Shown here piece by piece: positions 5,985 to 8,251 of a stretch of 16,450 nt of DNA (position 1 is the stretch's first letter; every line of letters starts with the position of its first letter). The notes beneath the pieces are model-generated. The model was not told the origin of the DNA. It ran no database searches and worked only from the letters and a program-made list of their open reading frames with translations. The position numbers were made by a program, and so were the translations under genes. Source of the DNA: a virus (taxonomy: Duplodnaviria > Heunggongvirae > Uroviricota > Caudoviricetes); IMG/VR virus record IMGVR_UViG_2537561618_000007, one strand, 5' to 3'.

Positions 5985-6863
5985 ATGATGACGTTTAACC
6001 TGCGTGAACAACAAAAAAGACTACAGGCGCGAATGGATGAGTTACGGGCAGAGATTGCATTTGCTCAGAAGGGCGAAAAGCCATGGCCTTATCGTTCCTG
6101 CCTGATGCGTGAAGGTCGCGGATATTGCGAAAAACATGGCGAATATCACACGCATATACTGGTGTGGAGCGATCGTAATGGCGAGGACAGAGAAGAAATT
6201 TCATGCTGCCCTGACTGCTTAATCGCTGAGGCCAACGATTTGACCATGGAGCTGTCGTCCATCAAGGCGGAAGAGCTGACTGATAACGCCGGAATTGCCC
6301 TGCGTTTTCGGGACTGCGAGTTTGATAATTATCTGGAGGTTAATCCTGGCGCAGCCAGAAATCTTGCGGCCTGTCGCCGCTATGCGGAGAACTGGCCAGA
6401 TATGCTGGAGAACGGTACCAGTCTTGTTATGACCGGCAGTTGTGGTACCGGAAAAAATCATCTGGCTGTGGCTATGGCAAAACACATCATCCGTAACTAT
6501 CTGGCCAGTGTGGAGATCACCGACGTGATGCGCCTTACCCGTGCTGTGAAAAATTGCTGGCGGAATGACAGCGAAAAAACAGCGGATGAAGTTATTGAGC
6601 GTTATGCGTCAATGGATTTGCTGATCATCGACGAAGTTGGCGTTCAGTTTGGCAGCGCGGCTGAAATGGCTATTTTGCAGGAAATTATCAACGCCAGGTA
6701 CGAAAGTATCTTGCCCACCATTCTGATCAGTAACCTCTCACCGGAAGAGTTGTGGGCGTTCATCAGTCCCCGAATTGCCGACAGGATCACAGACGGGGGA
6801 CGCAACTGGTTGTCGTTTAACTGGCCCAGTTACCGTTCTCGTATCAGAGGTGTGGCTGCATGA
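5985..6863 (+). CDS. DnaC-like helicase loader (IstB-type AAA+ ATPase)
   Basis: Walker A GSCGTGKNHLAVAMA and Walker B LLIIDEVG. Cys/His-rich N-terminus. Stop overlaps the helicase start. Confidence 0.8.
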   Translation: MMTFNLREQQKRLQARMDELRAEIAFAQKGEKPWPYRSCLMREGRGYCEKHGEYHTHILVWSDRNGEDREEISCCPDCLIAEANDLTMELSSIKAEELTDNAGIALRFRDCEFDNYLEVNPGAARNLAACRRYAENWPDMLENGTSLVMTGSCGTGKNHLAVAMAKHIIRNYLASVEITDVMRLTRAVKNCWRNDSEKTADEVIERYASMDLLIIDEVGVQFGSAAEMAILQEIINARYESILPTILISNLSPEELWAFISPRIADRITDGGRNWLSFNWPSYRSRIRGVAA

Positions 6864-8251
6864 CAACTCCAGTATGGCGTAACGATGACCTTGAAGGCGC
6901 TGTCATCGGCGCGTTCTTTCTGCGCGGAGCAGATCCTGAAGTGATGGATATTCTGGCCACACTGCCAGCGGACGTTTTTTCTGTACGAGCGTATCAGGAT
7001 ATCTATACAGGCATCTGCAGACAGGCCCGTGTTTCAGGAGTGATTGACCCCGTGCTGTTGTGTAATGAGATGCCGGAACTTGCCCCGGTGATTACTGATA
7101 CCGGGCGTAAAACCTGGGTGAAGTCTTCACTGGAGCACTATGTTGCAGCGTTGCGGCGCAATGCCGCACTGCGCGATGCAGAAAAAACACTGAATGAGGC
7201 GCTGCAGAAATTACGTGATGCGCATACCTGTGAAGCAGCTGAAGATGCCCTGAAGGATGCGCAGAACATGATGGTCACACTGTCGACAGGAAAGGGCGTC
7301 ATTCAGCCGGTACATATTGATGATGTGCTTCCGGAAGTGGTTGAGCGTGTTGAATGCCGGAATCAGGGGCTGGAGAAATCCAGGACGTTGATGACCGGTA
7401 TTGATGAACTGGACGCAAAAACAGGCGGTATGGAGCCCGGAGACCTGGTATTCATTGCCGCCCGTCCTTCGATGGGGAAAACCGAACTTGCGCTGGACAT
7501 CATCGACAAGGTGACTGAGCAGGGGCATGGTGTGCTTCTGTTCACCATGGAGATGGCGAACATCCAGATTGGTGAACGTATGGTGTCTGCGGCTGGAGGG
7601 ATGCCAGTATCACGCCTGAAATCTGTGGCTCACTTTGAAGATGAAGACTGGACGCGTTTCTCACAAGGGGTGGGGCGGATGACCGGGCGCAATATCTGGA
7701 TGGTGGACCAGGCGAACCTGGCCATTGATGAGATATGCGCAACAACGAAACACCACCTGATTAAATATCCGGAAACGGCGCTGGTGGTGGTTGATTATCT
7801 CGGGCTGATAAAAACCCGAACCACGGGGCGTCATGACCTTGCCGTGGGTGAAATCTCAAAGGGGCTTAAAGGCCTGGCAAAATCCGGTGGTTTTCCGTTG
7901 ATTGCGCTGAGCCAGCTCTCCCGCGGTGTGGAGTCCAGACCCAATAAACGTCCCATGAACTCAGACCTGAAAAATTCCGGAGAAATAGAGGCGGATGCAG
8001 ACATCATTCTGATGCTTTACAGGGATGAAGTGTACAACCCGGATACGCAGGCCAGGGGCATCGCAGAAATCAATATCACGAAACAACGTAACGGTTCTCT
8101 GGGAACGATTTACCGGCGTTTTTATAACGGACATTTTCTGCCTGTGGACCAGGAAAGTGCACGGGTGCTTTCCACTCCCATGAAGCCCGGCAATCCGCGC
8201 AGATACAGTAATAAACGAACTGACAGCAGTAAGATGGAGCGTTTCTTTTGA
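6860..8251 (+). CDS. DnaB-family replicative helicase
   Basis: 463 aa with Walker A AARPSMGKTELALD, Walker B VVVDYLGLI, and the SQLSRGVESR and ITKQRNGSLG motifs. Confidence 0.85.
   Translation: MTTPVWRNDDLEGAVIGAFFLRGADPEVMDILATLPADVFSVRAYQDIYTGICRQARVSGVIDPVLLCNEMPELAPVITDTGRKTWVKSSLEHYVAALRRNAALRDAEKTLNEALQKLRDAHTCEAAEDALKDAQNMMVTLSTGKGVIQPVHIDDVLPEVVERVECRNQGLEKSRTLMTGIDELDAKTGGMEPGDLVFIAARPSMGKTELALDIIDKVTEQGHGVLLFTMEMANIQIGERMVSAAGGMPVSRLKSVAHFEDEDWTRFSQGVGRMTGRNIWMVDQANLAIDEICATTKHHLIKYPETALVVVDYLGLIKTRTTGRHDLAVGEISKGLKGLAKSGGFPLIALSQLSRGVESRPNKRPMNSDLKNSGEIEADADIILMLYRDEVYNPDTQARGIAEINITKQRNGSLGTIYRRFYNGHFLPVDQESARVLSTPMKPGNPRRYSNKRTDSSKMERFF

Follow-up and report, generated by a model that had tools for sequence, protein, structure and literature searches.

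The stretch of DNA analysed here is a record of a Caudoviricetes virus (IMG/VR record IMGVR_UViG_2537561618_000007) of 16,450 nucleotides (nt), hereafter called the window, and the locus in question is its replication module, in which three consecutive open reading frames (ORFs) encode an O-like replication initiator, a DnaC-type helicase loader and a DnaB-type helicase (Table 1). Positions 5985–8251 run exactly from the start of the loader gene through the stop codon of the helicase gene. The same three ORFs are called by the Prokaryotic Genome Annotation Pipeline (PGAP) in a 99.8%-identical Escherichia coli O121 prophage. The locus is an ordinary lambdoid-prophage replication operon, consisting of an origin-binding initiator, a DnaC-type loader and a DnaB-type helicase. 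It is also annotated in E. coli prophages, at up to 99.8% identity, and it is 91–93% identical to its counterparts in phiP27 and many Shiga toxin (Stx) phages of the Stx1a and Stx2a types, where the genes are annotated as replication protein, DnaC-like loader and helicase. The module is already known by annotation, and the zinc-finger N-domain and the iteron map described below are modest additions to it. Its one less familiar feature is the conserved finger at the N-terminus of the loader, a probable zinc binder.

Table 1 Features of the replication module and its immediate surroundings (aa, amino acids; TRF, Tandem Repeats Finder).
Feature	Residues	Window position	Strand	Basis or note
O-like replication initiator	302 aa	5066–5974	+	PHROG matches, iterons
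Initiator N-terminal half, variable, putative origin-binding	~1–165		+	Locus comparison
Initiator constant C-terminal domain	~168–302	5567–5971	+	Locus comparison
Five tandem 23-bp iterons in the initiator gene, putative origin binding sites		5400–5514	.	Consensus GGAnnnGGGAAACCCnTTTTCGC
12-bp repeats, 3.7 copies, candidate unwinding region		5518–5561	.	TACAGAGAATAC; TRF; A+T-rich, adjoining the iterons
Initiator/loader junction		5972–5987	+	Sequence; TGA 5972–5974, 10-nt spacer TTCTGAGGTGACAGCGATG, ATG at 5985
DnaC-type AAA+ helicase loader	292 aa	5985–6863	+	Pfam, PHROG, NCBIfam, PDB, fold
Loader N-terminal domain	1–101	5985–6287	+	Helical hairpin (helices 4–29, 76–101)
Inserted three-stranded beta zinc-finger module, putative	~37–86	6093–6242	+	Model, hhalign
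Putative zinc ligand	C48	6126–6128	+	Conservation
Putative zinc ligand	H51	6135–6137	+	Conservation
Putative zinc ligand	C75	6207–6209	+	Conservation
Putative zinc ligand	C78	6216–6218	+	Conservation
Loader AAA+ ATPase domain	~106–289	6300–6851	+	DnaC alignment, Foldseek
ATGA overlap of loader stop and helicase start		6860–6863	+	Sequence
DnaB-family replicative helicase	463 aa	6860–8251	+	DnaB_C, DnaB N-domain, TIGR00665
Helicase N-terminal domain	9–86		+	Alignment
Helicase RecA-like C-terminal domain	177–422		+	Alignment
Helicase basic tail	431–463	8150–8248	+	Alignment
Small coiled-coil ORF	85 aa (TTG 8248) or 80 aa (ATG 8263)	8248–8505	+

An earlier note on this DNA, made from the sequence alone, had proposed the loader and helicase identities and named domain searches as their check; these searches supported both. 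For the loader, Pfam returned IstB_IS21 (PF01695; 57.8 bits against a cutoff of 24.1, E value 1.5e-15) and Bac_DnaA (5.8e-07), and PHROG returned the family ‘DnaC-like helicase loader’ at 1.4e-89. Among proteins of solved structure, E. coli DnaC was the closest in sequence, its residues 46–242 aligning with loader residues 88–289 (E value 5.3e-31). The loader AAA+ domain aligns with that of DnaC in the E. coli DnaC–DnaB complex (PDB 6QEL/6QEM), with Walker A (G151-x-C-G-T-G-K157-N), Walker B (D211-LLIIDE217) and the arginines kept, R263 and R267 being aligned to DnaC R216 and R220. All of these elements are invariant among 20 loader homologues. Consistent with the alignment, a Foldseek search with the loader model found DnaC in the DnaB–DnaC complex as its best match (6qem_G; E value 2.2e-13, template modelling score 0.72), followed by Aquifex aeolicus DnaC, DnaI and IstB. 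The family score, the Walker and arginine residues and the fold likeness to a solved loader thus place the protein in the DnaC/DnaI/IstB clade. Within NCBIfam the best model was DnaC (NF005931), at 132.9 bits against a cutoff of 357 and with only residues 85–289 aligned, so that the loader is a paralogous, phage-type protein and not DnaC itself. It is a phage-type paralogue of the DnaC/IstB clade, neither a DnaC ortholog nor a transposition helper.

The helicase assignment was likewise borne out. Pfam identified DnaB_C (PF03796; 243.5 bits, 3e-72) and, just above its cutoff of 23, the DnaB N-terminal domain (PF00772; 24.8 bits, 2.4e-05), and residues 12–430 align with E. coli DnaB 34–461 at 1.5e-62. 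The catalytic motifs AARPSMGKT, DYLGL, ALSQLSR and KQRNG, the last with the arginine finger, are conserved relative to E. coli DnaB and are invariant also in a relative that is 48% identical. TIGR00665, the model of chromosomal DnaB orthologs, matched over nearly the full length (1.2e-91) with 307.7 bits, below its cutoff of 385.25, and the phage_DnaB model TIGR03600 scored 273.7 bits, below its cutoff of 498.65; the protein is therefore a DnaB family member that falls in neither curated subfamily. Its basic C-terminal tail extends past the E. coli DnaB alignment and ends in ...MERFF. Only an RRYS motif is conserved within this tail, which could serve as a docking tail.

The gene upstream had been described as an O-like initiator, a reading upheld by its PHROG families and by the iterons in the gene. 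Its product matches phrog_270 ‘replication initiation protein’ (2.5e-64) and phrog_9773 ‘replication initiation O-like’ (1.3e-36). No Pfam or NCBIfam model matched it, Pfam giving none even at E values up to 10, and the search against PDB sequences returned a chance match only (E value 0.9). Unlike lambda O, the protein has no match to Phage_rep_O, the Pfam N-terminal domain of lambda O-type initiators. PGAP names it ‘LvrA C-terminal domain-related protein’.

The iterons lie inside the initiator gene. TRF reported a period of 23 at 5443–5503, and a manual alignment of the five units has 10 invariant columns. The motif GGGAAAVC occurs nine times in the window against 1.9 expected, five of the nine within 5392–5505. 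Since the 23-bp period is not a multiple of 3 and the reading frame shifts between copies, what is maintained is a repeat of the DNA, not of the peptide. The adjoining 12-bp repeats belong to a stretch with a G+C content of 0.37–0.40 (5490–5579) and may form the region that unwinds. A TACAGAGAATAC-like 12-bp repeat, translated as TEITTE..., also follows the iterons in two other loci (L017, 1408–1439; L069, 3539–3577). As it is common to three otherwise unrelated types of initiator N-terminal half, this repeat may belong to a constant part of the origin and not to the specificity cassette.

Comparison with phiP27 and 80 IMG/VR loci separated the module into a variable and a constant part. At least five unrelated initiator N-terminal halves are joined to one constant C-terminal domain, and with each N-terminal type comes a repeat array of its own, located at the same place in the gene. 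The constant block is made up of the loader, the helicase and the last 135 aa of the initiator; the initiator portion shows 88–99% identity in nearly all of ~80 loci, and wherever an IMG/VR locus has sufficient sequence, initiator C-domain, loader and helicase follow one another in this order. Judged by sequence, the initiator N-terminal half and the iterons follow a natural domain-swap pattern like that of lambda O and its origin, forming an exchangeable specificity cassette. In lambda as in the window, the origin, made up of tandem iterons followed by an A+T-rich stretch, lies inside the initiator gene, and lambda O is likewise a two-domain protein in which the N-terminal half co-varies with the iterons and the C-terminal half is constant together with the downstream gene. 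The lambda side of this comparison, including P, is established knowledge. The two systems differ downstream: where lambda has P, which captures host DnaB and is not an AAA+ protein, the window has a DnaC-type ATPase and a phage DnaB-type helicase. We infer that the repeats constitute the origin and that the initiator C-domain recruits the loader–helicase pair.

The earlier note had also described the three genes as a translationally coupled chain of overlapping stop and start codons. This holds for the loader and helicase, where the ATGA overlap is kept in 82 of 82 related loci and a 4-nt overlap is found also in the divergent locus L003; it does not hold for the initiator and loader, which are separated by the 10-nt spacer. 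At the latter junction, the motif GAGGTG spans the initiator stop codon and is likely the ribosome-binding (Shine-Dalgarno) site of the loader. The junction is nearly invariant in 81 loci, and close coupling of initiator and loader, without a stop/start overlap, is plausible. The helicase stop codon (TGA, 8249–8251) overlaps in turn the TTG that PGAP takes as the start of the next, small coiled-coil ORF. This ORF follows the helicase gene in all close relatives, corresponds to L20 of phiP27, matches phrog_2565 (unknown function; 1.9e-31) and is called a hypothetical protein by PGAP. In simple scans for promoters and terminators, the number of sites did not exceed that in shuffled sequence, a null result that does not argue against a single transcription unit.

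A close known counterpart is that of the Stx2e phage phiP27, which has the same gene order (L17; L18, ‘DnaC-like helicase loader’; L19, ‘replicative DNA helicase’), followed by the small downstream ORF and then the Q antiterminator, as in the window. The initiator C-domain, loader and helicase are 94–97% identical in protein to those of the window, and the DNA is 93.6% identical over window positions 5572–8509, whereas the initiator N-terminal half and the iterons are unrelated. In RefSeq, the phiP27 loader is annotated from locus position 6291 (253 aa), while the homologous ORF occupies L001 6171–7049; the annotation drops the first ~40 residues, trimming the N-terminal helix of a domain that is 94% identical to that of the window. 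The Eru7 reference phage Stx2_14040 (LC567818) carries a module 86% identical with the same gene order. A divergent metagenomic module, with 58% identity in the loader AAA+ domain and 48% in the helicase, also retains the order of initiator, loader, helicase and antiterminator and the 4-nt overlap. Lambdoid prophages carry proteins of lambda P type, DnaC type or DnaB type at this position (PMC2669165). P22 genes 18 and 12 provide an O-like initiator and a DnaB-type helicase, also replacing lambda P, and Sakai Sp4, Sp10 and Sp12 and Rac have a DnaC-type protein only (PMC2669165). These P22-type and DnaC-only modules are described with one of the two proteins; the window has both, translationally overlapped.

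The N-terminal part of the loader sets it apart from E. coli DnaC. The DnaC N-terminus comprises ~45 residues, whereas that of the window loader comprises 87, which show no similarity to the DnaB-binding N-terminus of DnaC and carry a CxxH...CxxC pattern absent from it. The earlier note had suggested a zinc-binding domain from a Cys/His-rich peptide here, and the peptide is present as quoted (C48-E-K-H51-G-E-Y-H55-T-H57 and C74-C75-P-D-C78). The eight Cys/His residues noted fall into two classes: C48, H51, C75 and C78 are invariant in the 20 homologues (53–97% identity), and C39, H55, H57 and C74 vary, so the suggestion stands for the first four and not for the others. The same four are also kept in the distant proteins P0132 and P0147, and their invariance reaches ~30% identity. 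AlphaFold models of residues 1–105, all five with a predicted local distance difference test score (pLDDT) of 80–88, show two long antiparallel helices that hold a three-stranded beta module, with C48 and H51 at a beta-hairpin turn and C75 and C78 at the N-terminus (N-cap) of the second helix. As modelled, this placement has treble-clef geometry.

Profile comparison points in the same direction. By hhalign, residues 37–86 of the loader, which itself has no Pfam match in this region, align at 92% probability with the module of a DUF4379-matching protein, with the four ligands in register; DUF4379 is described in Pfam as a ‘probable treble clef zinc finger’. No Pfam zinc-finger model matches the loader N-terminal region, and the N-domain has no significant solved structural relative. 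A profile search with the N-domain gave only 30 matches in 1.84 billion representatives, mostly fragments of the same family, and reached no characterised protein; the domain is narrowly distributed. Among these 30 matches, the only non-loader relatives of the zinc module are four metagenomic proteins (P0140, P0143, P0144 and P0148) with two to four tandem copies of a W/F-rich helix plus CPxHGxY...GCPxC finger (Pfam DUF4379) and a C-terminal region with a weak restriction-endonuclease-like match.

A possible functional parallel is offered by Bacillus subtilis DnaI, whose helicase-binding N-domain holds zinc through three Cys and one His (PDB 2K7R; PMC2673437). Like DnaI, the window loader belongs to the DnaC/DnaI clade and has an N-terminal domain with a three-Cys/one-His site, predicted in its case, and by analogy this domain may be helicase-binding. 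The two sites differ in layout, the ligands being C67, C70, H84 and C101 in DnaI and C48, H51, C75 and C78 in the loader, and the window loader has neither the CxxC...H...C pattern nor the four-helix, two-strand fold of 2K7R. DnaI-N and the loader N-domain do not match in sequence, and DnaI-N is not among the top structural matches listed. The loader finger is probably an independent, convergent solution.

The loader gene is mosaic as well. In loci L075–L085, loader residues 1–100 are 57–62% identical to those of the window, the AAA+ domain is 91–93% identical, and the helicase is mostly 94–97% identical (83% in L082). The divergent N-domain beside a conserved AAA+ domain suggests that recombination has joined the two within the loader gene and that the N-domain exists as two alleles able to replace each other. 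Among the IMG/VR loci compared, no co-variation of these alleles with the helicase or with the initiator C-domain was seen.

Based on these findings, we think it probable that the locus is a lambda-style module with the origin inside the initiator gene, in which a cognate DnaC-type loader and DnaB-type helicase take the place of lambda P. The initiator N-terminal half would bind the five iterons that its own gene contains, and the A+T-rich 12-bp repeats beside them would open. The constant C-terminal domain would then recruit the loader–helicase complex. Within this complex, the loader N-terminal domain, a helical hairpin with a zinc finger, would grip the phage DnaB-like hexamer, and the AAA+ domains would then open the ring and load it onto single-stranded DNA in the manner of E. 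coli DnaC with DnaB. Once loaded, the helicase would recruit DnaG primase and DNA polymerase III of the host; genes for a primase or a polymerase were not found in the window. Initiator, loader and helicase would be expressed as one unit, with the ATGA overlap coupling the stoichiometry of the last two. The view of the earlier note that the module would not depend on host DnaB or DnaC is a reasonable and plausible deduction from gene content. Together with zinc binding and the contacts among the module proteins, such independence is something we infer.

We put forward a more specific version tentatively, regarding it as possible and somewhat less likely than its opposite. In it, the loader N-domain, with its helical hairpin and CxxH...CxxC treble clef, would be a helicase-recognition domain of a kind not described so far, specific for the co-encoded DnaB and a convergent counterpart of the DnaI zinc domain; helicase loading would be insulated from host DnaB and DnaC, and the initiator C-domain would act as a docking adaptor.

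The prophage around the module looks degraded. A copy of IS911, an insertion sequence (IS), occupies 925–2173 and shares ~99% identity with the IS911 copies of the O121 prophage locus; it sits between an HNH-endonuclease-like ORF (524–814) and NinB/Orf-like genes (2715–3125). HNH and NinB genes of the recombination or nin region lying upstream of replication genes are an unusual lambdoid order, which suggests rearrangement or a junction of two remnants. Immediately upstream of the replication genes, a Rha-family regulator gene (3989–4849 by comparison with O121) is split into ORFs 3509–4339 and 4415–4849, with an in-frame TAG at 4337–4339 where the 99.8%-identical O121 prophage has CAG. Downstream of the module, four packed tRNA genes (9373–9683; anticodons CAT, TCT, TGT and TCC) lie between the Q antiterminator (8757–9173) and the holin (9976–10191), the CAT tRNA being tRNA-Ile by annotation in the related O121 prophage. 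In Stx phages, the interval between Q and holin holds tRNAs and stx. In the window no toxin gene is found at the tRNA position between Q and holin. The lysis genes are immediately followed by an IS structure, nested or composite, at 12269–15691. Its arms (12269–13324 and 14636–15691) are 1056 nt long, inverted and 100% complementary, each with an identical 263-aa IS3-family transposase ORF, and the 1311 nt between them hold IS3-family transposase fragments on the minus strand (13371–14039 and 14253–14579). Any complete E. coli genome covers at most 49% of the window.

Several alternative readings of the locus were weighed. The name of the top Pfam match, IstB_IS21, would fit an IS21-type IstB transposition helper, an identity that we give next to no probability. 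The IS21 helper model NF038214 scored 69.9 bits against a cutoff of 200, compared with 132.9 bits for the DnaC model, the best sequence and fold matches are to DnaC, and there is no adjacent IstA transposase, the neighbours being an initiator and a DnaB helicase. The identity was rejected on the sub-cutoff IS21 score and the replication-gene neighbours. The Cys/His cluster of the loader might, in turn, be incidental and bind no metal. Half of the residues noted vary among homologues, and neither a Pfam zinc-finger match nor a significant structural match was obtained; against this stand the invariance of the other four in the 20 homologues, P0132 and P0147, their modelled positions at a hairpin turn and helix N-cap, and their alignment with the DUF4379-type module, and we judge an incidental cluster unlikely. 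The loader could also act on host DnaB, a role ascribed to lambda P and to the DnaC-type loaders of lambdoid prophages that lack a helicase gene. Loader and phage helicase would then be neighbours and not cognate partners, the helicase loading alone or serving another role, and the phage would continue to need host DnaB for its replication. Lambdoid prophages that encode just one of the two types, a DnaC-type loader or a DnaB-type protein, are on record (PMC2669165), the loader AAA+ domain is closest to E. coli DnaC, its N-domain alleles do not co-vary with the helicase, and the zinc-finger loader P0147 has no helicase gene nearby. Dependence on host DnaB is nonetheless improbable in our view, given the adjacency, order and 4-nt overlap in 82 close loci and in the 48–58%-identical module, and an N-terminus of 87 residues unlike the DnaB-binding one of DnaC. 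Retention of loader–helicase order and overlap even in the divergent module favours a cognate pair over chance adjacency.

Some observations count against a cognate, host-independent module as proposed above. Two loader N-domain alleles, ~60% identical, stand beside near-identical helicases, which is unlike strict co-evolution of loader N-domain and helicase, and the absence of a helicase gene near P0147, a distant zinc-finger and AAA+ loader, indicates that the finger is not exclusively tied to a co-encoded helicase. For the full-length loader, the best AlphaFold model has a pLDDT of 86 and the other four of five are of low confidence. The literature search found no experimental work on a phiP27-type replication module, and a 2022 survey notes a complete lack of experimental knowledge of the replication proteins of Eru-type Stx phages (PMC8951638). 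Several IS elements, the Rha nonsense codon and a gene order unlike that of the best-matching prophage mean that the replication genes may be intact but unused. The module in this genome would then be an inert relic, its ORFs intact in a defective prophage, which we consider rather unlikely though worth keeping in mind. IS911, the nested IS3-family cluster with its identical inverted arms, the CAG-to-TAG change, the NinB and HNH genes upstream of the replication genes and the low coverage by complete E. coli genomes speak for it, whereas the three replication ORFs are full length, their catalytic motifs are intact and their proteins are 99–100% identical to other prophage copies. This alternative concerns present activity and not the identity of the module, and it is compatible with the cognate loader–helicase module that we favour.

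These findings leave the general picture of how such modules work unchanged. The parts that they make available for testing are a putative origin at the iterons, an initiator of modular build and, in the loader, four candidate zinc ligands. No specific paper was found on zinc-containing phage DnaC-like loaders, and bacterial dnaC has been argued to descend from domesticated phage genes (PMC5109545); a phage loader whose N-domain is of another, putatively zinc-containing kind is a data point on the swapping of helicase specificity in the DnaC family. Both phiP27 and many Stx1a- and Stx2a-converting phages have this module as their replication engine, including representatives of Eru7, reported as the most widespread type in Europe (PMC8951638). 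If the tentative proposal about the loader N-domain were true, helicase loading would be insulated in a phage group that includes these widespread Eru7 Stx2a phages. Because phage replication amplifies stx copy number, the host factors that these phages need bear on toxin output.

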